Origin: an uncultured bacterium
GTDB lineage: Bacteria; Zixibacteria; MSB-5A5; GN15; FEB-12
Assembly: GCA_965603125.1 (NCBI GenBank)
Contig: CBFDBU010000008.1
Location: forward strand, 30,929-94,928
Direction of reading: 5' to 3'
DNA: 64,000 nt
Position 1 is the stretch's first letter. Each line of letters opens with the position of its first letter. This document shows positions 14,722-36,041 of this stretch, piece after piece. The notes under the pieces were generated by a model. The model did no database searches and had not been told where the DNA came from. It worked only from the letters and a program-made list of their open reading frames with translations. A program made the position numbers and the translations under genes.

Positions 14722-15047
14722 ACCGGAGGCAGGCGCAACTCCCTCCAAACTACACTAGGAACAGGGCGGGGTTCAGAGCCAGCGTTAAACATGTAGTCAA
14801 CGAGATAGACCAGATCGGCAATGTCCACTGGCGGAACACCGCTGTGGTTCACATCGCCGCGGATGGCGCAGCAACTCTCACGCAGCTTAGTCAAAAAAGC
14901 ATCATGGTTGAGCTGAAAGTGAAAGGTCTGATATGCATCCTGGGTAGGTAAATCAGATGACCATGTTTCGCCTGTGACATAAGCGCAGCCCCAACCGTCA
15001 ATGGCGATACCCCACCCATATTCCCAGTTGCTGCCGCCGAGGTGCAC
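14673..15047 (-). pseudogene. 5'-truncated fragment: SBBP-like beta-propeller repeat plus dockerin-like CCxIRGDVNHSG tail
   Basis: WGIAIDGWGCAYVTGETWSSDLPT (SBBP-like), then CCAIRGDVNHSGVPPVDIADLVYLVDYMFNAG (compare 21148..21705). It has no signal peptide or N-terminus. Its tail runs antisense into the end of the CHAT gene. Confidence 0.6.
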
Positions 15048-15246
15048 GATTCGGATCTACAGCCTGGATGGTGATCTGGTGCGGGAGCTGGAGCATGATG
15101 TTGACCAGTCGGACGGCACCGGCAATCATCATACCTGGAACCTGACCACGCGAAACACGCAGATGTTAGTTTCGGGGTTGTACTACTGGACGGTGGAGAT
15201 GCCGGGCGGCGCTGTGCAGATGGGAAGGTTAGCTGTTATCATGTAG
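15031..15246 (+). pseudogene. orphan C-terminal sorting-domain cassette (FlgD-Ig/T9SS-like), no body
   Basis: LPPRCTIRIYSLDGDLVRELEHDV...GLYYWTVEMPGGAVQMGRLAVIM is homologous to the last ~70 aa of 24578.., 27506.., 30577.. and 33417... Homology starts abruptly at 15031, where it abuts the minus-strand fragment. Confidence 0.7.
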
Positions 15247-16005: not shown

Positions 16006-16017
16006 GCCACCCCCCCC

Positions 16018-17787
16018 CTACTTTCCCTTTCCTGCTTTCTCCATCTTCGCCCAGGTGTCGCGCAGCGGTACCGTTCGGTTGAATACGAGCGCTCCGTCCG
16101 CGGAATCCACCGGATCAAGACAGAAGTAACCCTGACGCAGGAACTGGTAACGCGCCCCGGGAACCGCGCCTGAGAGCGATGGTTCCACCCGGCATGAAGT
16201 GAGGGTCTCCAGCGAGTCCGGGTTCAGGTAGTCGGTGAAATCGCCACCCTCGTCAGTCTCCAGCGGATTCTCTTTCGTAAACAGGTGGCTGTAGAGCCGA
16301 ACGGTGGCTGGTATGGACTGAGCCGCCGAGACCCAGTGCAGCGTTCCCTTGACTTTGCGTCCGGCAGGGGAGGTGCCGCTTTTCGTCTCAGGGTCGTAGG
16401 TGCAGTGCAGGGCGATGACTTCGCCCGTCTGCTCGTCTTTGACCACCCGCTCGCACTTGATTATGTAGGCGTGCTTGAGCCGCACCTCGCGGCCGGGGGC
16501 CAGGCGGAAAAACTTCCGGGGAGGGTCCTCGCGGAAATCCTCGCGCTCAATATACAACTCGCGCGAGAAGGGAAGCTGCCGGGTACCCATAGCAGCATCT
16601 TCGGGGTTATTCACCGCATCCAACTGTTCCACGCGATCTTCGGGGTAGTTGTCGATAATCAGCTTGAGAGGACGAAGCACAGCCATGACGCGCGGCGCCT
16701 GCCGGTTCAGCTCCTCGCGAACGCTGTATTCGAGATCGGCTGCCGCCACTATACTGTCCCTTTTCGCCACGCCGATGCGACCGATGAAGTTGCGGATAGA
16801 CTCCGGTGTATAGCCCCGCCGGCGCAGACCGGACAGGGTAGGCATCCGCGGATCATCCCATCCGCTCACGTGACCTTCGCTGATCAGCCGGGCGAGGATA
16901 CGTTTACTCAATACGGTATAGCTGATGTTGAGACGGGCGAACTCGATTTGCTGGGGATGGTGAACGGGCAGTTGATCCAGAAACCAGTCGTACAGGGGGC
17001 GGTGGTCTTCAAAGTCCAGGTCACAAAGCGAGTGCGTTATCCCCTCGATGGAGTCCGAGAGGCAGTGGGTGAAATCGTACATCGGATAGATGCACCACTT
17101 GTCTCCGGTGCGGTGGTGTGTCGCTCTCATGATGCGGTAAATGACCGGATCGCGCATGTTGAGATTCCCGGCGGCCATGTCGATTTTCGCCCGCAGTACG
17201 CGGGATCCGTCTTCAAACTCGCCGGCGCGCATTTGCTTGAACAGATCCAGGTTCTCCTCGACGGATCGGCCACGGTAGGGGCTGTCGCGGCCCGGTTTTG
17301 TCAGTGTGCCGCGGTATTCTCTGATCTCGTCACCGCTCAGATCACAAACGTAGGCTTTGCCGTCCCTGATGAGTTGAACGGCGTACTCATAGAGCTGCCC
17401 GAAGTAGTCGGAGGCGTAGTACAGACGGTCGTCCCAGCCAAATCCCAGCCAGCGGATGTCCTCCTGGATGGCGTCCACGTATTCGACATCCTCCTTGGTC
17501 GGGTTGGTGTCGTCAAAGCGGAGGTTGCACAGCCCGGAATATTCAGCGGCGATTCCGAAATCGAGACAAATCGCCTTGGCATGCCCAATGTGCAGACAAC
17601 CGTTCGGCTCCGGGGGGAATCGAGTATGGACCCGCCCCTCATTCTTGCCTGCCCTGATATCCGCCTCGACGATGCTTCGGATGAAATCCAGCGATGCCGA
17701 GGCATCACTGCCGGAGCTTCCGGCGGTTCCGTCTTGTTTTTTTGCTCCGTCGTTGCCCGGTTGTGAAAAGGGCTCTTTTGTTGTCAC
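16018..17787 (-). CDS. glnS: glutamine--tRNA ligase
   Basis: [25 protein letters not shown] (HIGH), [10 protein letters not shown] and VLSKR (KMSKS). The likely start is GTG 17787 with a GAGGAAG RBS. The track ORF extends to 17970 with no internal ATG. Confidence 0.93.
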
Positions 17788-18086
17788 TGTCTTCCTCGAT
17801 TCCTGCTGCTGTGTCGATAGGCTCGCATACTGCGAGCTAACGTTGCCGCGAGCGACTCCGTCACGCCCGATTGCCAAATCTAACCAATCCGGCCATCTCT
17901 GCAACCTAAATGTGTGGCAATATCTGACGTGGCGAGCGATAGTGTGATGCGGGGGAGAGCGGTGCAGCACTTTTTTTCTAACGGATAGAGGCTCATTTGC
18001 GAAAAAATTTTAAGACAATGTTGACTGTCGAACGTCATATAGCTGAAATTGTATTAAAAGAAACCCGCTTTAACTGAGGATACGCC

Positions 18087-21147: not shown

Positions 21148-21705
21148 CTACGGACACGCGGGCGGTACCGGACCGGCGTTAAACATGAAGTCCACTAAGT
21201 AGACCAGGTCGGCAATGTCGATAGGTTCGACACCGCTGCCATCGACGTCGCCTTCGTCAAAACATTCAGGTTCGGGGCCGCTATTGAACATGAAATCTAC
21301 TAAGTAAACCAGGTCGGCAATATCCACGGGCGGCACACCACTGTGGTCGACGTCACCGCGCAGGACACAGCAGCCGCCAAGAGGCTGAACGAAACCGTGG
21401 TTGACCCCGTAACTGTCAGAGCTGCCCGACCCAACCACCGGCTGACCCACGGTTGTGGTCACATCGTAGCTCATTGAGCTGCTCGCTCCACCACCCGACG
21501 AAACAACCTGCCAGTTTATCTCGTAGTTGTCCGATCGCCACACAGGCGACAATTCAACACCACCGGATTCTCCGGCAGTCTTGCTATTATCAACCAACCG
21601 CATCTCGGCGCGCGTCCCCTCCTTACCGGCGCCGATACCGGAATGGGAAGCAAGCAGCAGCAAGCCTGTCAGAACCAGAACGATGATTCCTTTTTTCATT
21701 GTCAC
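21148..21705 (-). CDS. small secreted protein with two dockerin-like (EF-hand-type) repeats
   Basis: Signal peptide MKKGIIVLVLTGLLLLASHSG. CCVLRGDVDHSGVPPVDIADLVYLVDFMFNSGPEP and GDVDGSGVEPIDIADLVYLVDFMFNAGPVP. Confidence 0.75.
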   Translation of the reverse strand: MTMKKGIIVLVLTGLLLLASHSGIGAGKEGTRAEMRLVDNSKTAGESGGVELSPVWRSDNYEINWQVVSSGGGASSSMSYDVTTTVGQPVVGSGSSDSYGVNHGFVQPLGGCCVLRGDVDHSGVPPVDIADLVYLVDFMFNSGPEPECFDEGDVDGSGVEPIDIADLVYLVDFMFNAGPVPPACP

Positions 21706-21719
21706 ATCCTTCGGTCCGG

Positions 21720-23855
21720 CTACTTGGTAGCGGCCAGTTCATCATTACTGTCAAGAGGCGCGCGTTGCCGAGCCAATATGACTTCCACCAGGGCGGATAC
21801 CTGTGTCAGTTGCGCTCTGGTGTCTTTCAATTCAGCCCTGAGCTCGTCAATCTCATCCGTCCTGGCCTGTAGCTTCTGTTGCGTTTCGTAAAGCGTCTGC
21901 ACCGCCTTCAGCGCCACGCCCGCAACATCCGCTGCGGCAAGGTATTTCGTATCGCGCTGCCCGTCTTTCATTGTGCCGACATCAAAGACTGCGTGAAAAT
22001 CCTCGGCCACCGGCCAGATGTGCCTCTCATCGGTACCCTTGTACTTCCAGTTTTCAATCGGAAGACTGCCTATCCGCTCCAGCACGTCGGCGCCGTCAAG
22101 CGACCTGAAGTCTTCCTTGAACTCCCGACTGGAACTATTCGTCCACACTCCCCCACTTGTCAGGCGGGCCCCGAAGCCATTCGAGCTGTTGGTACCGATG
22201 TGCAGTGGGTGGTGCACACCGCCGTCTTCGTCGTCGCGATTGATGCCTACCCGACCGGAGTTGCCGCCGCTAAAGAAAACAGCGCGGTCAGAGTTCTCGA
22301 CAAGGACGTATTCTCCGAAGATCAGCGAATGGTGGGCGCCGGTCGATATCTCATTGGATTCTCCTCCCAGAATGGTCGAGTAGTTGCCTTGATTGTAGTT
22401 TAGACGCCCGCCGAGCACCGAGGAGAACTTGGAGGCGGCCGTGTTATCATAGCCGCCACATACGAGAGCGGCTGTATCAAATACTGTCGCGCCGGCCAGG
22501 TTGCTGTAGCCTGAGGCTACACCGGCAAAGATGCCGTATGCCGTGTCAGCCTCGCCCCCGGAGACCGTGGCGGCTTTACCATTCGTGGCATTACTTAGTC
22601 CTCCGCCGATAACGTTGAACGAATAGTGGGCCTCATTCATATTACCCCCTGCGACTACGCTCCCATGCCCGCCGGCTGTATTGGAGTAGCCACCTGCGAC
22701 TCCGGAATACGCGCCTGAAGCGAAGTTGGCTCTGCCACCACTGATGGTGGAATACTCTCCATCGGCGGTATTGCTCCGTCCCCCACTCACCACACTGTAG
22801 TCGTAACCGGCAGTATTAAGCCACCCGCCGCCAACGGTCGCGCAACGGTAGCCCTGGCCAGCGGACCCGGTGACGCCTTCAACTCCGAGATTGACATGGG
22901 TGTAGTCGCTGGACCCGTGGAGCACGGACCCGGACCTGGCGATTCCCCAACCGCCACAGATGCGCAGAACGTTGCCCGTCAAGCACCAGTCACCATCATC
23001 GCCACCCGCGGCAGGTTGCCAGGTACCAAGACCTTCGCTGTCCGTCGTCAGGACGTAGCCGCCCTCCGACCCGGCCGCCATCCGAAATCCCTCAACCGAG
23101 GCAGTTCCCCGAACATCCAGGGCCTCCTCCGGTATGTCGGTGCCGATTCCCACCCGGGTTTCAGTGGCGTTGGCAGAGAGCACAATTGTCGGCTGACCAC
23201 CGCCGGAGTCCGGTCCCAGGATGGTCATCCGTCCCGTCAATGCGTCACTTGCCAATTCCACTCCGGGGTTTATTGGATCGGTGGGGACGCCCACCTCCAG
23301 GCGTGTGCCACTGCTGTCCGCACGGAGCTCAATGGCGGGCTGTCCGGTGGAGTCGGGAAGATACATCAGTCCCGCCAGGGTACGAATGTCCCCTGTCACC
23401 CGCTGCGAAATAGACGCATTGGGCACCGGGGTAACCCGTGTCCGGGGCTCCATCACCTCACCGTCGAATGTTACCTCGAGCCAGAGACCCGGCAGTCCCC
23501 TGTGGATGTCGCCCTGCTTGACCGTATCCTCGTGAATCGGTATCGGGTAAGACAACTGGGCCGTCGCCAGACCGCCACCTGCGATTGGCAGGTCGCCCCG
23601 ACCGCCGCAGCAGACGATCTCACAGTCACTGGCTACCGAATCCTCATAGTAGCAGTACGACAGGCTGTACAGACCGGGCGCAATGGGTTCACCGAGAGTG
23701 TCTGTGATCACGGCCGACCAGGTGATAACATACTCCCAGTCGCAATCGAAGTGATACAGCCAGTCGCAGGCTGCCTTTGCCTGCCCGGGTAGCGCCGCCA
23801 GCACAATGAGTGTTCCTACAATGATGACCAGTCTTGAGATGCTTGTGACTTTCAT
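21720..23855 (-). CDS. tail-fibre-like surface protein with C-terminal Peptidase_S74-type intramolecular chaperone domain
   Basis: Signal peptide. Central repeats are GGxSNTAxGxxSxxxGG (GGRSNTADGEYSTISGGRANFASGAYSGVAGGYSNTAGG...). The C-terminus SSREFKEDFRSLDGADVLERIGSLPIENWKYK...AADVAGVALKAVQTL plus coiled coil matches the endosialidase-chaperone pattern. Confidence 0.8.
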   Translation of the reverse strand: MKVTSISRLVIIVGTLIVLAALPGQAKAACDWLYHFDCDWEYVITWSAVITDTLGEPIAPGLYSLSYCYYEDSVASDCEIVCCGGRGDLPIAGGGLATAQLSYPIPIHEDTVKQGDIHRGLPGLWLEVTFDGEVMEPRTRVTPVPNASISQRVTGDIRTLAGLMYLPDSTGQPAIELRADSSGTRLEVGVPTDPINPGVELASDALTGRMTILGPDSGGGQPTIVLSANATETRVGIGTDIPEEALDVRGTASVEGFRMAAGSEGGYVLTTDSEGLGTWQPAAGGDDGDWCLTGNVLRICGGWGIARSGSVLHGSSDYTHVNLGVEGVTGSAGQGYRCATVGGGWLNTAGYDYSVVSGGRSNTADGEYSTISGGRANFASGAYSGVAGGYSNTAGGHGSVVAGGNMNEAHYSFNVIGGGLSNATNGKAATVSGGEADTAYGIFAGVASGYSNLAGATVFDTAALVCGGYDNTAASKFSSVLGGRLNYNQGNYSTILGGESNEISTGAHHSLIFGEYVLVENSDRAVFFSGGNSGRVGINRDDEDGGVHHPLHIGTNSSNGFGARLTSGGVWTNSSSREFKEDFRSLDGADVLERIGSLPIENWKYKGTDERHIWPVAEDFHAVFDVGTMKDGQRDTKYLAAADVAGVALKAVQTLYETQQKLQARTDEIDELRAELKDTRAQLTQVSALVEVILARQRAPLDSNDELAATK

Positions 23856-24148: not shown

Positions 24149-24265
24149 CTACAGTGAGCACATATCCGCGATAGCCAATCGATTTGGCGCCCCCAGGACT
24201 CGGACCGGCGCTGCGACACAGAGCAGCCCCAGGGCGATGACGCAAATACCCTTGCGTGACAACAT
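24149..24265 (-). pseudogene. decapitated third copy of the ~870-aa paralogue (signal peptide only)
   Basis: MLSRKGICVIALGLLCVAAPVRVLG, then unrelated sequence and a stop. It is preceded (24266..24577) by the same leader found upstream of copies A and B. Confidence 0.75.
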
Positions 24266-24577
24266 GACAAGCACCTCGATCACACTGTGGGGTCCGGTGT
24301 CGGGCGCCTCTCGCTCGGCAACCAGAAAGGGCAGGGGCCAAACTGATACAATAGCGATGTCACCGTGCGAACGATACCCGTAGTCGGCAGGCCGGCTGCC
24401 CCCGATTACTATACCACACGACAAGTCTACAGCAATAGCATATTATAATCAAGCGGAAAATGCGGCCTCTTCTATCTCCCGACAAGGTGCGCAGGGCAAG
24501 ATCCCTGCAAATACTGTCACGCGCCCGTCAGCTACGGTGATCCGTGGCAGCAAGGATAGCCTCTTATGCAAGCGGCG

Positions 24578-27193
24578 CTACATGAGAACGGCAAACTTTC
24601 CCATCTGCACAGCGCCGCCCGGCATCTCCACCGTCCAGTAGTACAACCCCGAAACCAGCATCTGCGTGTTCCGGGTGATCAGGTTCCACGTGTGATGATT
24701 GCTGGCGCCGTCCGACGGGTCGACGTCATGCTTCAGCTCCCGCACCAGATCACCATCCAGGCTGTATATCCGAATCGTGCACCTGGGCGGCAGGTTAGCG
24801 AAGTGAATCGCCCGTACCCGGTAGTCAGGGCGATCAAGCTCGGTGCGACCCTCGAAACCACGCTCCCGATAATCACCGTCGATCCGGTACGGGTTGGGGT
24901 AAACGTAGATTCGATCATCGGTCCCGTCCGCCATCCCTCCCGAACCGTACGGATAGGCGCATTGCGCACCCGCCGTCACCGAGGTTTCTAAAGCCTCAAG
25001 GTCTGACTTCGGCGAACCATAATCAAATGCCGTCACGTTCACCCAGTAGGGCACCGTCGGCAGTAAACCCTCTATCACGTACTCGTACTCGTAGTACTTG
25101 AAGTAACCATCCTCGGTGTAACGATCCGGGGTCAACGAATCCGGCGGCAGAGTCGAAGGGTCCGGCTCGTCGGGGTAAACCTTCCGGATCGGCGTAGTCA
25201 CACCGGGAATACAGGCATTGTGATCGTGCCACTCGAAATAGAAGAGCGAATCGGGATACTCAGGATGCACATAGTATGAACCGGGCATGTAGTCCAGCGG
25301 GTCGAAGCCGTCGTCCCGGCAGGGATCATCACCGGTCCCGTAGAGACAGCGAAGGTCGTCCAGCGTGAAGGGGATATCCCGCAGTTCCCAGCGTGGCTCG
25401 GGATAACGGTTGCCGTTCCATGTATACTTGTCATAGTTATCGCGGTCGTACGAAGCCACCAGCGAGTAGCTCTCGCGGCGATCATCGCGACCGAGATATA
25501 CCCGGTACCCCTCGAAATCATATTCGTGCGAGAAAACGTCCTTCTCCGTTTCTGAACGGTGGCCGTTGAAACGAATCTTCAGGCCGTCGACGATCGGGGT
25601 CACCCAGTATTCAGGCGCCGGCGGTGGTGATGCTCCTCGAAAGTCCGGCACGCCGTCACCCCAGTACCAGGTTGTCTCGGCCGACGTGATCACCCAGCCC
25701 GTATCAGTCGCCACCGAATCATACACGCACACCCGATACTCCCCCCGGTAACCGTCACCGTCAGTGTCGACACCGGGATTATCGTAGATCCACCGCGCCC
25801 AGATGGCGTTCTTGACCAAATCGGAGAAGTCCAGATGGGTATAGAATGCCGCCGGGTCACGCGGCAGATGCTGCAGGTTGTCGGGGTCGGTGTGGAGATT
25901 CTCCCCGGCCACGTAGGCGAACGTCAACGACAACGCCTGACCGGGATAGAGAGTGAAGGCGCCGTATGACAGCAGGTAGCGCGTGTCGTAGCCGTCGGCG
26001 AAATCCTCCGCCAGGTCCTGGTTTGGATACAGCCATGCGGTGTCATACGGCGAGATGGAGGACGTGAAAGCCTGGTCGTAATCGAACTCGTAGTTGCTCA
26101 TCTGGTAGTACTTGTTGACGTCACCCTCGGGAGTGCCCAGCCCACCGGTGCCGAAATCGCGGAAACCGGCTCTGCGCCGGGGGCCGAAATCATAGGCTGG
26201 ATCCGGACTGCTGATCCACCAGTTAAACGACAGATCCAGATTCTCCGATGGCGGTTCAAGGATACAGGTGCCGGTAACGTGTCGCTTGGAGACCATTGGA
26301 CCACCACCGATCCAGATTACGGTTTCCTGGAAATGGCCGTCTATTGGGTTCCCGTCGTTGTCAGCTATCCAGGCAATTTGCACCGTGTCCACAAATCCAC
26401 AGCCGAACGGCGACTTCAAAGTCTTCAGGAAACCGCACAGGTCATCCCATGGTCCCGCAGGCATCCCTACACCAACATCGGCGTCTACATAGAGCCCGAT
26501 GAACAACTGTTCCAGCAACTCGGATCCGATATTCTCGATAGACAGATCGAACAAAACGAAATCCTCGGCATAGCCGTACGACCACGCGTAAGTGTTCTGG
26601 GTGATCTCAACGTTCAGCGGGATGTGTGGACGATGGGCCATTACATCATATAAAAGGTAGGGATTCGCGTCGGTCATCGTGTCGGTATAGACACAAATGT
26701 AGTCCTGCTCCGAAACGGCCCCGTCGAAGTCTGGCGATTCCGGATCGACGATTGACCGGTACCTGATTTCGCCGAATGGATAGACATCGGGCGCCATCTC
26801 CTGCGCTAGGATTCGCCAACAGTCCTGCCCCGTGGAAACAAGGGTATCCCGGCCCACTACGGCGCCCACCCACAGGCTCGCGGAGTAAAGATACGAGCCC
26901 GGCATGCCCTTCGGAAACTTGCACCCGCTGAAGGGATCAATCAGCTCCCCGGTGAAGCAATCAACAGCCCCCGAATCAAAGGGTGTCATCCCAAAGCAAC
27001 CCTGATTCGCTATAGGGAGCCAAATTTCGCCGACGTTGTGAATGGCTGCCTGGTAGGCAGGTTCTGCTGAGACGGCACTGTGACTGACGCTCGGCCGTGT
27101 CTGCTGCAATGCAGATCGACCCGAAACTCGGACCGGCGCTGCGACGCAAAGCAACCCCAGGGCGATGACGCCAATGCTCTTGCGTGACAACAT
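24578..27193 (-). CDS. large secreted protein of unknown function, paralogue A, C-terminal FlgD-Ig/T9SS-like sorting domain
   Basis: Start ATG 27193 (GAGGTG 6 nt upstream) gives signal peptide MLSRKSIGVIALGLLCVAAPVRV. Calcium-binding-like NPGVDTDGDGY. C-terminus CTIRIYSLDGDLVRELKHD...GLYYWTVEMPGGAVQMGKFAVLM. The track ORF start 27277 is an unsupported upstream extension. Confidence 0.85.
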   Translation of the reverse strand: MLSRKSIGVIALGLLCVAAPVRVSGRSALQQTRPSVSHSAVSAEPAYQAAIHNVGEIWLPIANQGCFGMTPFDSGAVDCFTGELIDPFSGCKFPKGMPGSYLYSASLWVGAVVGRDTLVSTGQDCWRILAQEMAPDVYPFGEIRYRSIVDPESPDFDGAVSEQDYICVYTDTMTDANPYLLYDVMAHRPHIPLNVEITQNTYAWSYGYAEDFVLFDLSIENIGSELLEQLFIGLYVDADVGVGMPAGPWDDLCGFLKTLKSPFGCGFVDTVQIAWIADNDGNPIDGHFQETVIWIGGGPMVSKRHVTGTCILEPPSENLDLSFNWWISSPDPAYDFGPRRRAGFRDFGTGGLGTPEGDVNKYYQMSNYEFDYDQAFTSSISPYDTAWLYPNQDLAEDFADGYDTRYLLSYGAFTLYPGQALSLTFAYVAGENLHTDPDNLQHLPRDPAAFYTHLDFSDLVKNAIWARWIYDNPGVDTDGDGYRGEYRVCVYDSVATDTGWVITSAETTWYWGDGVPDFRGASPPPAPEYWVTPIVDGLKIRFNGHRSETEKDVFSHEYDFEGYRVYLGRDDRRESYSLVASYDRDNYDKYTWNGNRYPEPRWELRDIPFTLDDLRCLYGTGDDPCRDDGFDPLDYMPGSYYVHPEYPDSLFYFEWHDHNACIPGVTTPIRKVYPDEPDPSTLPPDSLTPDRYTEDGYFKYYEYEYVIEGLLPTVPYWVNVTAFDYGSPKSDLEALETSVTAGAQCAYPYGSGGMADGTDDRIYVYPNPYRIDGDYRERGFEGRTELDRPDYRVRAIHFANLPPRCTIRIYSLDGDLVRELKHDVDPSDGASNHHTWNLITRNTQMLVSGLYYWTVEMPGGAVQMGKFAVLM

Positions 27194-27351
27194 GACAAGC
27201 ACCTCGATCACACTGCGGGGTCCGGTGTCGGGTGCCTCTCGCTCAGCAACGAGAAAGGGCAGGTGCCAAACTGACACAATAGCGATGTCACCGTGCGAAC
27301 GATACCCGTAGTCGGCAGGCCGGCTGCCCCCGATTACAATACCACACTACA

Positions 27352-27380
27352 AGTCTACAGCAATAGCATATAACAGTCAA
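27352..27380 (-). promoter_or_regulatory. candidate promoter of paralogue A (TTGACT-17-TAGACT on the sense strand)
   Basis: The sense strand reads cTTGACTgttatatgctattgctgTAGACTtg, about 155 nt upstream of the ATG. The -10-like TAGACT is conserved in the other two leaders (24424-24429 and the equivalent site near 30275). The -35 region varies (TTGATT in the other copies). Confidence 0.35.
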
Positions 27381-27505
27381 GCAGAAAACGCGGCCTCTTC
27401 TATCTCCCGAAAAGGTGCGCAGGGCAAGATCCCTGCAAATACTGTCACACGCCCGTCAGCTACGGTGACCCGTGGCGGCAAGGATGGCCCCCCCTGCAAG
27501 CAACG

Positions 27506-30115
27506 CTACATGATAACGGCTAACTTGCCCATCTGCACTGCACCGCCCGGCATCTCCACCGTCCAGTAATACAAACCCGAAACCAGCATCTGCGTGTTCC
27601 GCGTGATCAGGTTCCACGTGTGATGATTGCTGGCGCCGTCCGACGGGTCGACGTCATGCTTCAGCTCCCGCACCAGATCACCATCCAAACTGTATATCCG
27701 AATCGTGCACCTGGGCGGCAGGTTGGCGAAGTGAATCGCCCGCACCCGGTAGTCCGGGCGATCAAGCTCGGTGCGACCCTCGAATCCACGCTCCCGATAA
27801 TCACCGTCGATTCGGTACGGGTTGGGGTAAACGTAGATTCGATCATCGGTCCCGTCCGCCATCCCTCCCGAACCGTACGGATAGGCGCATTGCGCACCCG
27901 CCGTCACCGAGGTTTCTAAAGCCTCAAGGTCTGACTTCGGCGAACCATAATCAAATGCCGTCACGTTCACCCAGTAGGGCACCGTCGGCAGTAAACCCTC
28001 TATCACGTACTCGTACTCGTAGTACTTGAAGTAACCATCCTCGGTGTAACGATCCGGGGTCAACGAATCCGGCGGCAGAGTCGAAGGGTCCGGCTCGTCG
28101 GGGTAAACCTTCCGGATCGGCGTAGTCACACCGGGAATACAGGCATTGTGATCGTGCCACTCGAAATAGAAGAGCGAATCGGGATACTCAGGATGCACAT
28201 AGTATGAACCGGGCATGTAGTCCAGCGGGTCGAAGCCGTCGTCCCGGCAGGGATCATCACCGGACCCGTAGAGACAGCGCAGGCTGTCCAGCGTGAACGG
28301 GATATCTCGCAGTTCCCAGCGCGGCTCGGGATAACGGCTGCCGTTCCATGTATATTTGTCATAGTTATCGCGGTCGTACGAAGCCACCAGCGAGTAGCTG
28401 TTGCGGCGATCATCGCGGCCGAGATACACCCGGTACCCCTCGAAATCATATTCGTGCGAGAAAACGTCCTTCTCCGTCTCCGAACGGTGGCCGTTGAAAC
28501 GAATCTTCAGACCGTCGACAATCGGAGTTACCCAGAAATCGGGCGCCGGCGGTGGTGATGCCCCTCGAAAGTCCGGCACGCCGTCACCCCAGTACCAGGT
28601 TGTCTCGGCCGCCGTGATCACCCAGCCCGTGTCGGTCGCCACGGAATCATACACGCACACCCGATACTCCCCCGGGTATCCGTCACCGTCAGTGTCGACA
28701 CCGGGATTGTCGTAGATCCACCGCGCCCAGATGGCGTTTTTGACCAGATCGGAGAAGTCCAGGTGGGTATAGAATGCCGCCGGGTCGCGCGGCAGATGCT
28801 GCAGGTTGTCGGGGTCGGTGTGGAGGTTCTCCCCAGCCACGTAAGCGAACGTCAACGACAGCGCCTGACCGGGATAGAGGGTGAAGGCGCCGTACGACAG
28901 CAGGTAGCGCGTGTCGGAGCCGTCGGCGAAATCCTCCGCCAGGTCCTGGTCGGGATACAGCCAGGTCGTGTCATACGGCGTGATGCTGGACGTGAAGGCC
29001 TGGTCGTAATCGAACTCGTAATTGCTCATCTGGTAGTATTTGTTGACGTCACCCTCGGGAGTGCCCAGTCCGCCGGTACCAAAATCTCGGAAGTCGGCCC
29101 TGTGCCGGGGGCCGAAATCGTAGACAGGATCCTGATTGCAGATCCACCAGTTGAACGACAGGTCCAGATTCTCCGATGGCGGCTCAAGGATGCAGATACC
29201 GGTAACGTGTCGTTTGGAGACCATGCGATCGAGGCCCCTCCAGATTACGGTCTCCTGGAAACGGCCGTCTATTGGATCGCCATCGTTGTCTGCTGTCCAG
29301 GCGATTTGCACCGTGTCGACAAATCCACAACCGAACGGCGACTTCAGAGCTTTCAGAAAACCGCACAGGTCGTCGTATGGTCCCGCACCCAACCCTCCCC
29401 ATACATCGGCGTCCACATAGAGCCCGATATACAAACGTTTTAGTAGCTCGGCTCCGATATTCTTGACAGACAGATCGAAGATAACGAAATCCTCGGCATA
29501 GCTGTACGACCACGCGTAAGTGTTCTGGGTGATCTCAACGTTCAGCGGGATGTGTGGACGGTGGGCCATGACATCATACGAAAGGTAGGGATTGGCGTCG
29601 GTCATCGTGTCGGTGAAGACACATAGGTAGTCCTGCTCCGAAACAGCCCCGTCGTAGTGTGGTGATTCCGGATCCACAATTGACCGGTACCTGATCTCAC
29701 CAAACGGATGGACATCGGGCGCCATCTCCTGAGACGGCCAGTGCCAACCGTCGGTGCCCGTGGAAACGAGGGTATCCCGGCCCACTACGGCACCCACCCA
29801 CAGGCTCGCGTCGAAAAGATACTCGCCCAGCATGCCCTTCGGAAACCGGCAACGGAACCTAATCTTCTCCCCCGTGAAGCAGTCAACATTTCCTGAATCT
29901 GCTAACCCTAGCCCAATGCAACCCTGATTCTGGATAACCAGTTCAATTTCGCCGACGTTGTGAATGGTGGCCTGGTAGGCAGGTTCTGCTGAGACGGCAC
30001 TGTGACTGACACTCGACCGTGCCTGCTGATAAGCAAGTCGACCCAGGACTCGGACCGGCGCTGCGACGCAAAGCAACCCGATGGCAATGACGCCAATGCT
30101 CTTGCGTGACAACAT
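27506..30115 (-). CDS. large secreted protein of unknown function, paralogue B
   Basis: Same architecture as A. The N-terminal ~330 aa is visibly divergent and the C-terminal ~540 aa is nearly identical. The start is ATG 30115. Confidence 0.85.
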   Translation of the reverse strand: MLSRKSIGVIAIGLLCVAAPVRVLGRLAYQQARSSVSHSAVSAEPAYQATIHNVGEIELVIQNQGCIGLGLADSGNVDCFTGEKIRFRCRFPKGMLGEYLFDASLWVGAVVGRDTLVSTGTDGWHWPSQEMAPDVHPFGEIRYRSIVDPESPHYDGAVSEQDYLCVFTDTMTDANPYLSYDVMAHRPHIPLNVEITQNTYAWSYSYAEDFVIFDLSVKNIGAELLKRLYIGLYVDADVWGGLGAGPYDDLCGFLKALKSPFGCGFVDTVQIAWTADNDGDPIDGRFQETVIWRGLDRMVSKRHVTGICILEPPSENLDLSFNWWICNQDPVYDFGPRHRADFRDFGTGGLGTPEGDVNKYYQMSNYEFDYDQAFTSSITPYDTTWLYPDQDLAEDFADGSDTRYLLSYGAFTLYPGQALSLTFAYVAGENLHTDPDNLQHLPRDPAAFYTHLDFSDLVKNAIWARWIYDNPGVDTDGDGYPGEYRVCVYDSVATDTGWVITAAETTWYWGDGVPDFRGASPPPAPDFWVTPIVDGLKIRFNGHRSETEKDVFSHEYDFEGYRVYLGRDDRRNSYSLVASYDRDNYDKYTWNGSRYPEPRWELRDIPFTLDSLRCLYGSGDDPCRDDGFDPLDYMPGSYYVHPEYPDSLFYFEWHDHNACIPGVTTPIRKVYPDEPDPSTLPPDSLTPDRYTEDGYFKYYEYEYVIEGLLPTVPYWVNVTAFDYGSPKSDLEALETSVTAGAQCAYPYGSGGMADGTDDRIYVYPNPYRIDGDYRERGFEGRTELDRPDYRVRAIHFANLPPRCTIRIYSLDGDLVRELKHDVDPSDGASNHHTWNLITRNTQMLVSGLYYWTVEMPGGAVQMGKLAVIM

Positions 30116-30389
30116 GACAAGCACCTCGATCACACTGCGGGGTCCGGTGTCGGGTGCCTCTCGCTCAGCAACGAGAAAGGGCAGGTGCCAAACTGACACA
30201 ATAGCGATGTCACCGTGCGAACGATACCCGTAGTCGGCAGGCCGGCTGCCCCCGATTACAATACCACACTACAAGTTTACAGCAATAGCATATTATAATC
30301 AAGCGGAAAATGCGGCTTCCTTTGTCTCCCGACAAAGTGCGCAGGGCAGGGCAAGTTCAGTCTCGACCGACTTTTTGTTTGTGCGCGGA

Positions 30390-30405
30390 AGACGCCCTCG
30401 TCTGC
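30390..30405. repeat. GCAGAC-type hairpin family member (core AGACGCCCTCGTCTGC)
   Basis: The 16-nt core is identical to 56602..56617. A second member, GGGGCAGTCCGGTAGGTCTGCC, lies at 30540..30561. Confidence 0.6.
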
Positions 30406-30576
30406 CCCTTGATAGATGTGTGACCCAAGTCATCCCAAGGTATCTAAACAAGGAAGAATTCCACCTGCGACGCCGCTTTAGGTGCAGTACCAATATGTCA
30501 AAACCGCAGATGTCTCAACCTACAACCGTAGTAAAAGTAGGGGCAGTCCGGTAGGTCTGCCACCCACGAAGCGGCG

Positions 30577-31779
30577 CTACATGATAACGGCTAACTTGCC
30601 CATCTGCACCGCTCCGCCCGGCATCTGCACCGTCCAGTAGTACAAACCCGAAACCAGCATCTGCGTGTTCCGGGTGATCAGGTTCCACGTGTGATGATTG
30701 CTGGCGCCGTCCGACGGGTCGACGTCATGCTTCAGCTCCCGCACCAGATCACCATCCAGGCTGTATATCCGAATCGTGCACCTGGGCGGCAGGTTGGCGA
30801 CCCAGACCAGGGCCATCTTGCCGTCGGTCATGGAGCTGGCGATGTCCTGCGAGAGATCATAAACGGTATCGACCACATAAGGCGGATAATCCCAGGCGCC
30901 ATCCGGGCCAACTCCCTCCTTGCGGAAATAGTAAATCGCCTGCGGGTCAGCAGCGTTAGGATTGGCTTGCTGCCCGATAACATGCGTCACCGGAATCTGC
31001 CCGGGCACATCGTGATACCGCATGGCCGGCCAGATTGCTACCTGCCCGGCCGATGCCCCATACTCCTGCACACTGTCAGGCACACGCGAGGTCAAGGCAA
31101 AATCGCCCCACATCGGTCCGGAATCGTAGGCCACCTGGCAGGAATAGCCTGTGCCTTGATTGTTGTGGCCTACGGTGACGGCGCAATTTGCGACGTAACT
31201 AGTATCAAGTCCGCCCTGACCGTCATCCTCGGTCCGCAGCACCTGGGTTACATCAAGACCACCGTAGCCACTATATTCACCCGGAGGTTGAACGGACACA
31301 CCGACGCCGGGTTGAAGCTGGGTGCCGGTCATACCCATGTAACAATTATAGTACGTGTGACGATCTACTAGAACCATACTCGGCAAATGCATATAGGTGA
31401 AGTGAACCCCGAACCCATAAGCCTTGCCGTCACCCAGGTCAGGACCCCAGCCCCAATTGACCATGCGGCGCATCGAGCCGTTACGCTGCTTGTCGTACCA
31501 GGTCTCACCAACCTTCACACCCGGCGACACGCCGAGCTTCTCAGTCCCGCCCAGGGACTGAGTCGGCACGACCCTGCCGGTCGAAACGGAGAAATCTTGC
31601 TCATCAGGGAAAGAGTACATCTCCACCCTGTTGATAAGAGGATTGAGCACCTTTCGTTTCTCAACCGGTTTCTCGGAAGCGCCCGCCTGCGTCGTCAGGA
31701 AGGCCACCACCAGTAAGGAGAGCACCAGCGCTATTGAAGTTCTCCTTGCCGTACAATTGCTCCTTTCAAGATATTTCAT
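30577..31779 (-). CDS. secreted protein, unrelated N-terminal body fused to the same C-terminal sorting cassette
   Basis: Signal peptide MKYLERSNCTARRTSIALVLSLLVVAFLTTQAGA. The last 224 nt (30577-30800) differ from paralogue B (27506-27729) at only 7 positions, then similarity stops abruptly. The start is ATG 31779 or TTG 31788. Confidence 0.8.
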   Translation of the reverse strand: MKYLERSNCTARRTSIALVLSLLVVAFLTTQAGASEKPVEKRKVLNPLINRVEMYSFPDEQDFSVSTGRVVPTQSLGGTEKLGVSPGVKVGETWYDKQRNGSMRRMVNWGWGPDLGDGKAYGFGVHFTYMHLPSMVLVDRHTYYNCYMGMTGTQLQPGVGVSVQPPGEYSGYGGLDVTQVLRTEDDGQGGLDTSYVANCAVTVGHNNQGTGYSCQVAYDSGPMWGDFALTSRVPDSVQEYGASAGQVAIWPAMRYHDVPGQIPVTHVIGQQANPNAADPQAIYYFRKEGVGPDGAWDYPPYVVDTVYDLSQDIASSMTDGKMALVWVANLPPRCTIRIYSLDGDLVRELKHDVDPSDGASNHHTWNLITRNTQMLVSGLYYWTVQMPGGAVQMGKLAVIM

Positions 31780-31832
31780 AACTCTCAACCTTCTCCTGTA
31801 GTTTCATGCTTGAAACGCATACCCGTGATCCC

Positions 31833-32007: not shown

Positions 32008-32505
32008 AGAACCCCTACATTAGTGGCTGGCCCTTTCGACCAAATGTAGCCCAAAAGGGCCAGGTTGTCAAGGTAATCCGCACTTGTCCCTACCGCTATG
32101 AGCTACCCGTGACCACAAGAATTCCGCCGACTGCCTTCAATTGCCACAACGGTGTTCCAGTAGTCCCGGCAGTAAACTACTCCACTAACGCAAACCTGTC
32201 ACCAACGCGGTCAGTATGTCCAGCCGCACATTTGTCTCGCGTCTTCTGCACAGTCCGCCGGGCTGTCAGCCACCGGCGGAGTCTGCGATTTCGGCTGCAA
32301 GTTCCAACTGGGCCACGCTCCCCCCTTTTACAGTTGATCGAGAAGGAGTCAATACTCACACTCTGACTGGAGTGAAAAACAGGGGCAGACCACGATGCCC
32401 ACGTGAACGAACCCACAGTGTACGGAGAGACTGCTGATAGCCACGCGGTGGTTGCACAACAAGTTACAGGGAAAGCAAGCCGCAGATCATTGGCTTATAT
32501 GGAAA

Positions 32506-32589
32506 TGCCGAAGGGGGGACTCGAAGCCCCACTCCCTTGCGAGAACTGCGCCCTGAACGCAGCGTGTCTACCGATTTCACCACTTCGAC
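32506..32589 (-). tRNA. tRNA-Leu (anticodon CAG), class II with long variable arm, CCA not encoded
   Basis: The reverse complement reads GTCGAAG TG GTGAAATCGGTAGACAC G CTGCG TTCAGGG CGCAG TTCTCGCAAGGGAG T GGGGC TTCGAGT CCCCC CTTCGGC A. The acceptor has 7 bp with one G.U. It is closely parallel to E. coli tRNA-Leu(CAG). One oddity is C at position 53, giving a C.C instead of the G53-C61 pair. Confidence 0.8.
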
Positions 32590-32655
32590 ATCCGGTGTCT
32601 CACAAGCACCTCGAGCGACGAATCGTTTTGGTGATATCTCCTTGGTGTCCGAATA

Positions 32656-32925
32656 TTGTCCATCAATAAGCTCCGATGACTCAATCGCCTTACGCTTGTG
32701 CGACGTACTAAGAGGGGAATATCGCAGCGTCTTGTCAATGCTTTTGTGCCCCAATAACTCCTTTACAGTCAGTAAGTCCAGATCGTTCATCACCAGGTGA
32801 GACGCAAAAGTGTGACGAAGATCATGGAACCTAAACCGAGCAATCCTGGCCCGCTTGAGGGCGTTGGCGAAGGCTGTACTGAGGTCTCTCCGTTTGTCGC
32901 CGCTGTGCTTGGCAAAGGCGAAGGG
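32656..32925 (-). pseudogene. tyrosine recombinase (phage integrase family) C-terminal fragment
   Basis: FRFHDLRHTFASHLVMNDLDLLTVKELLGHKSIDKTLRYSPLS covers the R-H-x-x-R...Y catalytic end. The frame opens just after a stop at about 32926. There is no N-terminal two-thirds. The open frame continues through the tRNA to 32464. Confidence 0.75.
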
Positions 32926-32930
32926 TCCTC

Positions 32931-33296
32931 AAGACGATCTATTCAGCGCCGAACGTGGACGCCGCCGAAGAAGCTCTGGCTGCCTTCGAAGCCAGGTATC
33001 AGGACCGCTTCCCCCGGATCGCCCGCTCGTGGCGTTGTTGCTGGATGAACATCATTCCGTTTTTTAGCTACCCGCCGGAGATTCGGAAGGTTATCTATAC
33101 CACCAACGCCATTGAATCGATGCAGGCACAACTTAGAAAGGTGATTCGGAATCGCGGCTCGTTTCCTACGGCCGACTCGGTCAGGAAGGTGATCTACTTG
33201 GCATTCCAGAGAATCTCGCAGAAATGGAAGCGGCCCATCAAGGATTGGGTCGCAGCCCTGAACCACTTCAGCATTATGTTCGAGGGAAGGATCTGA
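32931..33296 (+). mobile_element. IS256-family transposase, C-terminal ~120 aa only (remnant)
   Basis: KTIYSAPNVDAAEEALAAFEARYQDRFPRIARSWRCCWMNIIPFFSYPPEIRKVIYTTNAIESMQAQLRKVIRNRGSFP...ALNHFSIMFEGRI matches the conserved Transposase_mut C-terminus. It abuts the integrase fragment head-to-head at about 32926-32931. Confidence 0.8.
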
Positions 33297-33416: not shown

Positions 33417-36041
33417 CTACATTATTATCACGAACTTGCCCATCTGAATGCGGCCGCTCTCATGGTCCTCGACGCTCCAGTAGTACAATCCCGAAACGAC
33501 CGTCTGCGTGTTGCGGGTAATCAGGTTCCATTGTGCCTGGGTGGCCGTTCCATCGCGGGGTTGTTTGTCGTTCTCGATTTCGCGTACCAGGTCGCCGTCG
33601 ATCGTGTATATGCGTATGGTGCACCGGGGCGGCACGTTTGCGAAATGGATGGCGCGGACCCTGTCGGGGGGGCGGACTATTTCCGTCCGGCCTTCCAGGC
33701 CGCGCTCGCGATACTCGCCGTCTCCGCGGTAAGGGTTGGGATACACGAATACGTCGAGGTTGTCACGTTGCACTTCATCCCAGGGGCTGAGCGCGTAGAC
33801 ATTCTGCATACCAAGCGTGACCGATGATTCCAGGGATTCCAGCCCGGACTCAGGGGAGCCGTAGTCGAAAGCTGTCACATTGACCCAGTAGGGGACGGTA
33901 GGTAGCAGATCGGCAATGGTGAATTCGTACTCGAAGTACTTCAGGTGGCCGTCCTCGGTCAGTTCCTCGGGCCGGGCCGAATCCGGGCAGAGGCTGGTGG
34001 GGTAGGGCTGACCCCGGTAGATCTTGCGAATGGGGGTGGTGACGCCGAACACCGACGCGTTGAAATCCTGTGCAGCGAAGTAAAACTGGGAATCGGGATA
34101 GAGCGGGTGTTCGTAGGGCCGATTTCTCGTGAAATCCAACGGCTGAAAACTCCCGTCGTTACAGGACTCGCCGTAGAGGCACCTGAGTTCCTCAAGAGTG
34201 AACGGTGTCTCCTGCAGTTCATACTCGATTCGCCTATCATTCCAGACGAACTTGTTGTAGTCCTCACGGTCGTAGGAAGCCACCAGGGTGAAGCTGGAGG
34301 CCCGATCGTCGCGGGCCAGGTACACCCGATATCCTTCAAAGTCGAACTCCCGCGAGAAGACGTCTCGCGTGGTCTCGGAGCGCAGCCCGTTGAACCGTAT
34401 CGTCAGACTTCCAACCCTCCGGTCGATCCAGAAGTCGGGAGGCGGCGGGGGGGAGGCTCCCCGAAAATCCGGTACGCCGTCGCCCTCGTAGTAGAATGTG
34501 TCGCAGACAGTGTAGTTCCAGCCGGTGTCAACCTGCAGCGGGGACTCAGAGAGGGTGTCCAGGATGATCAATGAATCGGTGCAACAGATTCTCATTTTCC
34601 CGTAATACCCGTTGCCATCGGTGTCGACGCCGGGGTTGTCGTATATCCACGAGGCCCACTGGCTGTTCGCGGCCAGGTCGGTGAAATCCACATTCCGGTA
34701 GTACTCATCAGGGTCACCTGGGAGGTTGGAGACGTTGTCGTTGTCTCCGTGAAAGTCTTCGCCTCCCACATACGCAAATGACACCGGCAGGGTCTGCTCC
34801 GGACGGATGTGGAAGGGGCCGAAAGATATCAAATACCTGGTATCGAAACCATCAGCGAAATCGTCGGCCAGTTCCTGGTTCGGATACTGCCACAGGGTAT
34901 CGCCGGGCTGGATGACGGCGGTGCGTATCTGGTCGTAGTCGAATTCCTGATTGCGCATGACGTAGTACTTGTTGACATCACCTTCCGGGGTGCCCAGGCC
35001 GCCGGTGCCGAAATCACGGAAGTTCTCGCCCCGTCGCCCCATGAAAGGTCTTTCACGGGGGCCGAAACACAGTGAGGGGTTCATGTTGCCGATCCACCAG
35101 TTGAAACTGACGTCCAGCGAATCCGAGGGTGTGCGCACAATCCGGGTGGCGGTCACGGCCGGACAGGGATGAAACTGACCGTCATTGTGTATCCGATTGA
35201 AGTCGCCGTCATTATCCGCTATCCAGGCAGTGAAGACAGTATCCACATAATCGCAGGCGCCGTACCGGGACGGGTGGCGGTAAAGGAATCCGCAGATATC
35301 GTCGGCAAAGCCCCGGGAGTTGACGCAGTCGAAGCAGACATCGGCATCGACATATATCCCCATGTAGACATCGTTCAGATTCCGGGAACCGATGTTCCTT
35401 ATCTTGTAATCGAACAGAACGAAATCCTCCGCATACGAGTACGACCAGGCGTAGGAGGCCTGCGTTATCTCGATGTTCAGGGGCATGTGGGGTCTGCCGA
35501 AAGCGTCCGCCAAAACTCCCTCGGTTAGGGTATCCATGTAGACGGCGATGTAGTCTTCTTCCGAAATGGCGCCGTTAAACTCCGGCTTGGTGGGATCGGT
35601 AATGGAGCGGTACACGATCTCCCCGAAGGGCTCCTCGTCCGGGTACATCTCGGCTCCACCGCCCCACCCGTCTGCGCCCACGGAGACAAGGGTGTCGCGT
35701 CCGATCACGGCGCCGATCCAGAAGGCAGCGCCGTACAGATACTCCATGTCGGAGTTCTTCGGGTATTCGCAGGACGGCACTTGTTCGCCGGTAAACCAGT
35801 CAAATCTCGGGCCGGGGTGATAATTGTTGCCGAAAGTCCCATTGTTGGCAACACCCAACTCGATTTGCCCTACGCGGTGGGCCACCAGGCAATGAACGGG
35901 AGAGGCGGCCGCCTGGCCCGTTCGAGCAGACCTGACCTGGTCGGCACCCGGGGCGATTCTGGCTGAGACGGCGGTGGCAAGGACCAGGCTGCCTGCCGCC
36001 GCGGCGACGATCCGGATCGTCCTGTTGTTCAGTGTAAACAT
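33417..36041 (-). CDS. large secreted protein of unknown function, divergent paralogue D of A/B
   Basis: Signal peptide MFTLNNRTIRIVAAAAGSLVLATAVSA. It is collinear with A/B (AAFWIGAVIGRDTLVS, PLNIEITQASYAWSYSYAEDFVLFDY, FGTGGLGTPEGDVNKYY, NPGVDTDGNGY, VPDFRGASPPPPPDFW, PTVPYWVNVTAFDYGSPES, CTIRIYTIDGDLVREI). Confidence 0.85.
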   Translation of the reverse strand: MFTLNNRTIRIVAAAAGSLVLATAVSARIAPGADQVRSARTGQAAASPVHCLVAHRVGQIELGVANNGTFGNNYHPGPRFDWFTGEQVPSCEYPKNSDMEYLYGAAFWIGAVIGRDTLVSVGADGWGGGAEMYPDEEPFGEIVYRSITDPTKPEFNGAISEEDYIAVYMDTLTEGVLADAFGRPHMPLNIEITQASYAWSYSYAEDFVLFDYKIRNIGSRNLNDVYMGIYVDADVCFDCVNSRGFADDICGFLYRHPSRYGACDYVDTVFTAWIADNDGDFNRIHNDGQFHPCPAVTATRIVRTPSDSLDVSFNWWIGNMNPSLCFGPRERPFMGRRGENFRDFGTGGLGTPEGDVNKYYVMRNQEFDYDQIRTAVIQPGDTLWQYPNQELADDFADGFDTRYLISFGPFHIRPEQTLPVSFAYVGGEDFHGDNDNVSNLPGDPDEYYRNVDFTDLAANSQWASWIYDNPGVDTDGNGYYGKMRICCTDSLIILDTLSESPLQVDTGWNYTVCDTFYYEGDGVPDFRGASPPPPPDFWIDRRVGSLTIRFNGLRSETTRDVFSREFDFEGYRVYLARDDRASSFTLVASYDREDYNKFVWNDRRIEYELQETPFTLEELRCLYGESCNDGSFQPLDFTRNRPYEHPLYPDSQFYFAAQDFNASVFGVTTPIRKIYRGQPYPTSLCPDSARPEELTEDGHLKYFEYEFTIADLLPTVPYWVNVTAFDYGSPESGLESLESSVTLGMQNVYALSPWDEVQRDNLDVFVYPNPYRGDGEYRERGLEGRTEIVRPPDRVRAIHFANVPPRCTIRIYTIDGDLVREIENDKQPRDGTATQAQWNLITRNTQTVVSGLYYWSVEDHESGRIQMGKFVIIM

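Follow-up and report, generated by a model that had tools for sequence, protein, structure and literature searches.

Gene conversion on an old tandem duplication in an unannotated family of Zixibacteria proteins

How do neighboring copies of a gene come to be identical in one part and clearly different in another? This question is raised by two genes, A (24578..27193) and B (27506..30115), which lie head to tail on the minus strand of a 64,000-nt stretch of DNA from an uncultured marine-sediment member of the Zixibacteria. We refer to this stretch as the window and give all coordinates as positions within it. Gene A encodes a protein of 871 aa and its tandem paralog B one of 869 aa; the two are 91% identical at the amino-acid level, differ by 234 nucleotide mismatches across the coding sequence and have stop codons 2928 bp apart, which is the period of the repeat. 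The protein encoded by A has a putative signal peptide (MLSRKSIGVIALGLLCVAAPVRVSG), an N-terminal β-supersandwich (~residues 43-470), Ig/FN3-like β-sandwiches and a C-terminal domain (CTD; ~residues 795-871) like those of the type IX secretion system (T9SS). An initial annotation had given the same coordinates and spacing, which we confirm, and had read the pair as a variable surface or receptor-binding protein: gene conversion was thought to homogenize the flanks, while diversifying selection or cassette replacement kept the N-terminal domain different.

We consider it likely that A and B are instead intact, fixed paralogs, the products of an old duplication that was later patched by gene conversion, and that they represent ordinary paralog evolution rather than programmed variation. 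The pattern of divergence along the two genes was determined as non-synonymous (pN) and synonymous (pS) differences per site with Nei-Gojobori counts. Residues 26-330 have a pS of 0.30 and a pN of 0.123, and residues 331-620 a pS of 0.22 and a pN of 0.028; these are followed by values of 0.026 and 0 in residues 621-790 and of 0.17 and 0.011 in residues 791-871. Between the first two regions, synonymous divergence is not significantly different (p=0.09), whereas amino-acid divergence changes about four-fold (p=1e-10). Outside the converted tracts, synonymous divergence is thus roughly uniform along the gene, and the contrast between the N- and C-terminal parts of the proteins is a four-fold difference in the rate of amino-acid substitution under net purifying selection. 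Purifying selection, not homogenization, is also the reason why the C-terminal two-thirds are for the most part so similar. These two-thirds had been described as identical, but residues 331-620 alone hold 45 synonymous and 19 non-synonymous differences, and the proteins are identical only from residue 621 (...DDPCRDDGF) to residue 866 (...AVQMGK), the last 29%, within the limits already named in the initial annotation. The concentration of amino-acid differences toward the N-terminus is borne out, with 64 of the 81 in residues 26-330 (the same count as for residues 1-330), while the ‘small indels’ reported there reduce to a single one of two codons in the whole alignment.

Within the identical part, identity of the DNA itself is limited to a stretch of exactly 451 nt, 24885..25335 in A and 27813..28263 in B, both on the minus strand, in which the computed alignment has no mismatch, as the initial annotation had noticed. 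It belongs to a zone of low divergence that spans residues 621-790. When the mismatches of the 3′ half were placed uniformly, a gap of at least 451 nt arose in none of 100,000 trials, and synonymous divergence in the tract is far below that in the neighboring residues 331-620 (0.026 vs 0.22, p=4e-6). For comparison we used the closest outside sequence, the single homologous gene (88% amino-acid identity) of the Zixibacteria metagenome-assembled genome (MAG) RS_12_5 (JAGLXI010000061.1; L001 in the following). At 39 consecutive variable sites, A and B agree and L001 differs (Sawyer-type permutation, p<1e-5). Likewise, the three sequences form a star-like trio in residues 26-620, with branch lengths of 92 for A, 98 for B and 101 for L001, but in residues 621-790 these become 2, 1 and 45; for the signal peptide they are 2, 3 and 22, and a weaker skew is seen in the CTD (6, 5 and 20). 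Real head-to-tail copies, an over-long tract of identity and phylogenetic discordance with respect to L001, the three marks of concerted evolution, are hence found together; they support that gene conversion has acted between A and B and that these belong to the tandem paralogs under concerted evolution.

One recent non-reciprocal transfer made the 451 nt identical, and older or weaker homogenization affected the CTD as well as the leader and signal peptide. That conversion homogenizes the flanks, as initially proposed, therefore holds for the tracts marked by the 39-site run and the skewed branches, while most of the C-terminal similarity has the other cause given above. The duplication itself is old, given a synonymous divergence of ~0.22-0.30 per site and the about equal distances between A, B and the L001 gene. 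These data are fitted best by a duplication that took place around the time of the split from the L001 lineage or before it, by a later homogenization of both ends, and by an N-terminal domain that evolves faster but is still constrained.

The leaders of A (27194..27425) and B (30116..30347), both on the minus strand, are ~95% identical, which agrees with the initial description of near-identical leaders and signal peptides. The leader of A carries a promoter-like TTGACT-17-TAGACT at 27380-27352, followed by a 5′ untranslated region (UTR) of ~150 nt, and the ATG of A is preceded by a Shine-Dalgarno-like GAGGTG motif. In the 5′ UTR, A and B are free of mismatches for 190 nt (27354-27165); the three leaders of the array, including that of a truncated copy described below, differ pairwise by a similar 5-6%. 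Conversion in the 5′ UTR is likely but not proven. A riboswitch or another structured leader was rejected as a candidate, the fold of the 5′ UTR being no more stable than that of shuffled sequence (z=+0.43) and an Rfam scan of 20-37 kb having returned a tRNA-Leu only and no family at the leader.

Homogenization of this kind is not confined to the window. We examined 80 loci with related genes from a species-representative genome collection, most of them labelled Zixibacteria or GN15 and some Ignavibacteriales or Calditrichaeota, and found head-to-tail arrays of two to five copies within 10 kb in about 45 of them. Adjacent copies at the same locus range from 99% down to ~40% identity. Among 99 same-strand pairs, exact DNA runs of at least 100 nt occur in six pairs from five loci, all in the second half of the gene; they include runs of 2313 nt at locus L049, of 1302 and 495 nt at L051, and, at the CTD of an L078 pair with an overall identity of just 65%, of 222 nt. 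At L049 and L051, for which the flanks were profiled, identity stops at the stop codon. Homogenization anchored at the 3′ end is a recurrent property of the family.

Among the alternatives, the variable surface or receptor-binding protein of the initial annotation survives best, although we hold it to be unlikely. It can draw on the 64 amino-acid differences at the N-terminus and on sub-patches (residues 26-130, 51-100 and 201-250) in which pN/pS reaches 0.63-0.75 and is indistinguishable from 1; a few 30-codon windows around residues 76-115 even attain 1.25-1.65, none of them significantly. Residues 26-130 also evolve fastest in comparison with L001, with a ratio of non-synonymous to synonymous substitution rates (dN/dS) of 0.48-0.54, and at L049 and L051 old 5′ divergence (dS ~1 or saturated) is joined to an identical 3′ part, which resembles a replacement of heads or a homogenization of 3′ parts. 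Over the whole patch of residues 26-330, however, pN/pS is 0.41 and significantly below 1 (p=8e-9), so that the dN/dS check which the initial annotation had suggested speaks against diversifying selection there. The A/B differences fall at columns that are variable in the family (p=4e-13) and are not enriched in loops (odds ratio 0.95), and no variants of the variable region (26200-27100 or 29100-30040) were seen in contigs of four runs from 2016-2024, bearing in mind that contigs drop rare variants.

Replacement of cassettes finds no support either. Because synonymous divergence is not raised in the N-terminal region, no foreign cassette has entered A or B, and because both copies carry a full promoter-like leader, a signal peptide and a CTD, neither of them is a silent cassette. 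Antigenic or phase variation from silent cassettes was rejected on these grounds, each copy also having a Shine-Dalgarno-like motif and the remnants in the array consisting of conserved ends only. A target of a diversity-generating retroelement (DGR) was rejected as well, since the substitution spectrum is symmetric and without adenine bias; no reverse transcriptase was found among the open reading frames (ORFs) scanned with Pfam, which comprised the array and ~28 larger ORFs of a window that was not scanned exhaustively. These tests exclude antigenic variation of the cassette type and DGRs.

Much less probable still is a plain old duplication under unequal constraint that has seen no conversion at all, its identical block being held by selection on the DNA or RNA itself. 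Such a history would agree with the uniform synonymous divergence outside the block and with the well-conserved part of the protein that the block encodes. Yet L001 differs at 45 positions in residues 621-790, against two and one private changes in A and B, and the DNA there is therefore free to change. Conservation across the family is 0.64-0.76 in the identical 3′ stretch, no higher than elsewhere, and so does not explain the missing A/B differences; moreover, the block has no Rfam match and no overlapping conserved ORF, and comparable 3′ identity tracts recur in unrelated arrays.

The tandem duplication is real and fixed, with two copies per genome, as judged from the depth of assembler unitigs in four metagenome runs (X1, X2, X3 and X6) that cover marine sediment and subsurface in three studies from 2016-2024. 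In X1, the flank has a depth of 8, the A-specific unitigs 10-11, the B-specific ones 7-10 and the shared 451-nt block 19; the corresponding values are 16.5, 15, 10-11 and 20 in X2, 21, 11-18, 16-19 and 35 in X3, and 23, 25, 21-26 and 39 in X6. Thus, A- and B-specific unitigs each have about the single-copy depth of the flank in all four runs, and the block is a single unitig at about twice that depth, which indicates two copies per genome because strain alleles would each show about half the flank depth. The order of the array recurs in at least five independent long contigs; one independent contig of 139 kb is collinear with the window from 33855 to 11720 and deviates from it at 4 positions in 22 kb (there are four similar places), and other, shorter assemblies break at 25130, 24721 and 24402, all inside repeats. 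That A and B are alleles of two co-existing strains misplaced in tandem, or a collapsed or expanded repeat, a concern raised by the uncultured source, which makes the window probably a metagenome assembly, by the breaks within repeats and by one low-depth contig (3.2x) in X3 that joins 25900 to 28985, is the least credible alternative of all, given the depths and independent contigs, the joint in X3 that skips 3084 instead of 2928 nt, contains 6 extra letters and looks like a chimera, and the fact that tandem arrays are the norm for the family in other genomes, including closed MAG chromosomes.

How, then, did the array take shape? All of its genes are on the minus strand, in the strand order D, C, B, A and T, and a repeat search recovered a 300-nt leader segment three times (92-93% identical) and a 241-nt segment from the end of the coding sequence three times, with a spacing of 2928 bp. 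The recurring homologous unit runs from CTD through spacer and leader to signal peptide, and is found at the C/B, B/A and A/T junctions. T (24198..24577, minus strand) is a remnant of a third copy with intergenic spacer, leader and signal peptide, whose homology ends after ...VRVLG. The initial annotation had recognized the surviving leader and signal peptide; it called this copy decapitated, but the head is what was kept, and the body is missing. A 38-codon ORF (24265 to 24149) runs from the signal peptide of T out into unrelated sequence, and a gene of 711 aa begins 290 nt beyond, into which the T leader may now read.

Two further remnants had been missed. The first is a CTD of the A/B type (30577..30800, minus strand) that forms the end of gene C (30577-31788, 403 aa). 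Gene C matches a Zixibacteria family of ~550-700 aa, which some records name ‘glycoside hydrolase’, only over the N-terminal half of that family's proteins, as far as ...VWVANLP (~residue 333), and then turns into the CTD; its closest homolog, P0122, belongs to a related Zixibacteria MAG, shows no break at this point and is not fused. At the DNA level, no more than 7 of 216 nt separate the CTD of C from those of A and B, and the three copies differ mutually by 7-10 nt. Judging by these junctions, a deletion at the microhomology ANLP probably fused gene C to the tail of a lost upstream copy of the array. A metatranscriptome contig that seemed to suggest an un-fused allele of gene C proved irrelevant, with an overlap of only 39 nt. 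Between C and B, the intergenic region upstream of the B leader (30348-30576) contains an insertion of 149 nt that the spacers of A and T lack; the spacer at 30350-30576 also holds ~70 nt that are unrelated to them.

The second additional remnant is a lone, inverted CTD (15031..15246, plus strand) within an 81-aa ORF (15001-15246), ~90% identical to the CTDs of A, B and C. Its DNA is 19-23 of 216 nt away from these three and 22-25 nt from L001, with which it has the residues E and TG in common, and the 32 nt that follow it correspond to those behind the L001 gene, next to glnS. Based on these distances, residues and the downstream match, the lone CTD probably marks the ancestral end of the array. 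It lies (15001-15287, plus strand) back to back with a 3′ fragment of 124 aa from an SBBP/dockerin-like gene (14673-15047, minus strand), both without their 5′ parts, and the region has the look of an old rearrangement breakpoint. Two states of the T signal peptide are likewise found in L001, and T and the lone CTD, which are 9 kb apart in opposite orientation, may represent opposite ends of a single broken gene. The gene order at L001 is family gene, HDOD, glnS and CHAT/TPR gene, compared with CHAT/TPR gene, CTD relic, 193-aa ORF and glnS at 11445-17937 in the window, where the intact array lies 9 kb off in the opposite orientation; to connect the two orders, one would have to assume no fewer than two inversions and a deletion, or else a chimeric L001 contig. 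Since the L001 contig starts exactly at the ATG of the family gene, we suspect that its genome, too, contains repeats of the leader.

The three remnants, T, the tail of C and the lone inverted tail, support the view that the array has also contracted. Expansion and contraction had been attributed to unequal recombination; the remnants and the arrays of two to five copies in other genomes bear out the dynamics, but the truncation junctions are non-homologous and are not in-register unequal crossovers. Unequal crossover may well apply to growth: we infer that the succession leader-B-leader-A-leader is the product expected from a crossover between flanking leader repeats. In the mechanism that we propose, the junction-spanning unit of CTD, spacer, promoter/leader and signal peptide would supply the homology for unequal crossover and conversion. 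Conversion would start in the well-conserved 3′ part of the gene and would be halted on its 3′ side where homology ends, at the stop codon, and on its 5′ side by the rising density of mismatches, so that the N-terminal domain would escape homogenization and go on drifting or specializing. Copies would have been lost as well, by non-homologous deletions and rearrangement.

Gene D (33417..36041, minus strand, 874 aa) closes the cluster on its upstream side; it is an older paralog of the family with ~54-57% amino-acid identity to A, depending on the aligner. Between D and C lie a tRNA-Leu(CAG) gene (32505-32590, minus strand) and a C-terminal fragment of a Mutator-family transposase (32955-33296, plus strand), and this region (32464-33296) looks like the debris of a mobile element. 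An ORF overlapping the tRNA gene ends in a tyrosine-recombinase-like motif (LLGHKSIDKTLRY), for which Pfam gave no match, and contigs of several runs have loose ends at 31900, 31931, 32592 and 32927.

The proteins themselves belong to a large family that occurs across the Zixibacteria, has members of ~870 aa and is almost devoid of annotation. Gene A has more than 1900 matches (E≤0.001 among the candidates scored), almost all without a functional name and, where a source organism is named, mostly from the candidate division Zixibacteria; precomputed Pfam domains are lacking in all of the best 120. When A, B and C were scanned with Pfam and NCBIfam, no family was returned, and a sequence-profile search of the PDB returned nothing. 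In a profile search of 1.84 billion representative proteins, we obtained 859 clusters (50% identity) with E≤1e-30, a number that rises to 2632 with E≤1e-10; in some of them, the match is confined to the N-terminal 490 or 750 positions and the C-terminus is a different one. In several other Zixibacteria genomes, arrays of the family are preceded by two genes for M16 peptidases of ~526 and 713 aa (L011, L024 and L043, with flanking ORFs of the same sizes at L038 and L049) or, in some of them, by an S8-PKD protease instead (for instance L009 and L017), while downstream of them an MFS transporter is encoded on the other strand. This arrangement of peptidases and transporter is absent from the window; where present, it may hint at the processing or uptake of proteins or peptides.

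Structure prediction gives some indication of what the proteins might do. The AlphaFold2 model of A, based on an alignment of 69 sequences, has a predicted local distance difference test score (pLDDT) of 83 and a predicted TM-score (pTM) of 0.77, and the C-terminal half modeled alone a pLDDT of 84. In Foldseek searches against the PDB, ~420-480 columns, which the domain layout assigns to the N-terminal part, matched the β-supersandwich N-domains of dextran dextrinase, GH116 and the GH94 phosphorylases as well as the P1 domain of YidC (E 1e-9 to 1e-4). An enzyme like those of GH116, GH94 or GH15 was considered and rejected: the model is nearly all β-strand, with short helices only in residues 358-470 and no (α/α)6 barrel, the TM-score of Foldseek is ~0.2 over these columns, and there is no sequence match. 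The C-terminal half matched PorU (6za2), PorZ (5m11; E 6e-4, 21% identity) and stacks of Ig/FN3 domains, and the last 75-80 residues form a CTD that is common to A, B, C, D and more than 100 other, in many cases unrelated, Zixibacteria proteins. The putative signal peptide has a layout of positive charge, hydrophobic stretch and small residues, and is modeled as an N-terminal helix followed by a disordered linker. Given signal peptide and T9SS-like CTD, a secreted or surface location is plausible: the protein would be exported by the Sec pathway and then sorted to the cell surface by a CTD of the T9SS type, and its variable β-supersandwich is predicted, from the model, to be the part that binds, or possibly acts on, a glycan or another ligand.

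On the level of expression, A-specific RNA contigs (region 25433-27300) were found in three sediment metatranscriptomes, in which D was detected as well, whereas B-specific contigs (28238-29788) are almost absent; at the very low depth of these data, this hints at A as the more expressed copy.

Several observations weigh against our reading of the locus. Three sequences are too few for site-level models of positive selection, and the windows around residues 76-115 do exceed a ratio of 1. The depths were taken from assembler unitigs and not from raw reads, and the array is not spanned by long reads, Nanopore runs having been sought and not found. The tracts of 100% identity in other genomes were found in MAGs assembled from short reads, and such assemblies may collapse repeats that are nearly identical; the identity of A and B in the 5′ UTR could reflect constraint together with the decay of the defunct T copy instead of conversion. 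As for the protein, the CTD stays below the Pfam cut-off of 27 bits (E 0.012-0.3 and 12-16 bits for the T9SS models overall, of which CHU_C reaches E 0.012-0.028 with 15-16 bits and Por_Secre_tail E 0.1-0.3), the curated CTD models being PF18962/TIGR04183 or PF13585. No T9SS machinery (SprA/Sov, PorV, GldK-N) was detected in the ORFs scanned in the window, outside of which it was not looked for, and a literature search pairing Zixibacteria with T9SS found nothing. Finally, the ligand-binding role follows from the fold only, and the many invariant acidic residues in the N-terminal part could equally mean an enzyme.

The neighborhood of the array is a cluster of exported or surface proteins. The 711-aa gene beyond T (23855 to 21720, minus strand) is unrelated to A and B and encodes a Peptidase_S74 domain, the chaperone of tail spikes and endosialidases, along with a β-roll-like repeat region. 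Also downstream of the array, within 21148-23855 on the minus strand, is a 185-aa gene with two dockerin-like repeats, and a similar repeat is found at 14770-14858. The surrounding genes are chromosomal housekeeping genes (glnS, valS, lpxC-fabZ, ribD, gdh), and the G+C content of the window is 54-59%. Direct repeats of ~460 nt (2009-2471 and 3951-4412, 74-92% identical) flank the glutamate dehydrogenase gene (2561-3859).

Mosaics of conserved and variable parts are known from several other systems. In Neisseria pilE/pilS, Borrelia vlsE, Mycoplasma genitalium MgPa/MgPar and the DGRs, the variable region of a surface protein is likewise localized and accompanied by partial copies nearby. By contrast, A and B have no layout of expression site and silent cassettes, and their partial copies hold the conserved ends rather than the variable part. 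Helicobacter pylori babA/babB and Brucella omp2a/omp2b are outer-membrane paralogs that undergo gene conversion and, like A and B, have near-identical ends, divergent internal or N-terminal parts, which bind ligands in those proteins, and non-reciprocal transfers that result in mosaics. These loci are usually dispersed or inverted, are found in host-associated pathogens and have been shown to switch phenotypes, whereas A and B are adjacent copies in a free-living sediment bacterium, for which neither switching nor population heterogeneity was seen. In Porphyromonas gingivalis, a member of the Bacteroidota, the T9SS cargo genes rgpA, kgp and hagA have recombined 3′ adhesin segments in common. 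Such cargo has an N-terminal signal peptide, as A and B putatively do, and resembles them in a C-terminal β-sandwich of ~75-80 aa common to unrelated proteins and in its homogenized 3′ segments; A and B differ in that their matches to CHU_C and Por_Secre_tail fall below cut-off and their passenger domains are without a known family.

The closest described case is the tandem paralog cluster lpl of Staphylococcus aureus, whose conserved unit, according to the published description of the cluster, extends from the 3′ end of an ORF across the spacer into the 5′ end of the ORF that follows (Tsuru and Kobayashi, 2008; PMC2568036). As described there, lpl also comprises tandem paralogs of exported proteins, in which recombination at a conserved intragenic segment shuffles parts, but this segment is a central conserved region between two variable ones (PMC2568036). 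In A and B, it is the 3′ quarter and the leader with the signal peptide that are homogenized, and there is a single variable region at the N-terminus. Furthermore, the families are unrelated, and the lpl case, as presented in that study, rests on many complete genomes of one species, compared with one population and scattered MAGs for A and B.

In sum, A and B are a real and well-resolved case in which an evolutionary process of a known kind has acted on a protein family that lacks annotation. Their mosaic is explained by one dated conversion tract and by unequal protein constraint on a uniform synonymous background, and it illustrates that a mosaic of identity and divergence in tandem paralogs need not mean diversifying selection. 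The junction-spanning unit and the CTD donated to gene C are clear examples of how a sorting domain spreads by recombination. As a tentative idea, the family might represent a repertoire of surface binders, with a constant stalk and sorting domain that 3′-anchored gene conversion would keep uniform, and with N-terminal heads that could diversify from one tandem copy to the next. If so, a genome would display two to five or more heads, specific for different glycans or substrates as ligands, on an interchangeable secretion chassis, and the junction unit would let arrays grow, shrink and donate the sorting domain, as to gene C. Structural and glycan-binding studies could reasonably be aimed at the β-supersandwich with its many invariant acidic residues. 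A and B also draw attention to a large, unannotated and probably surface-displayed family in a major uncultured phylum of the sediment.

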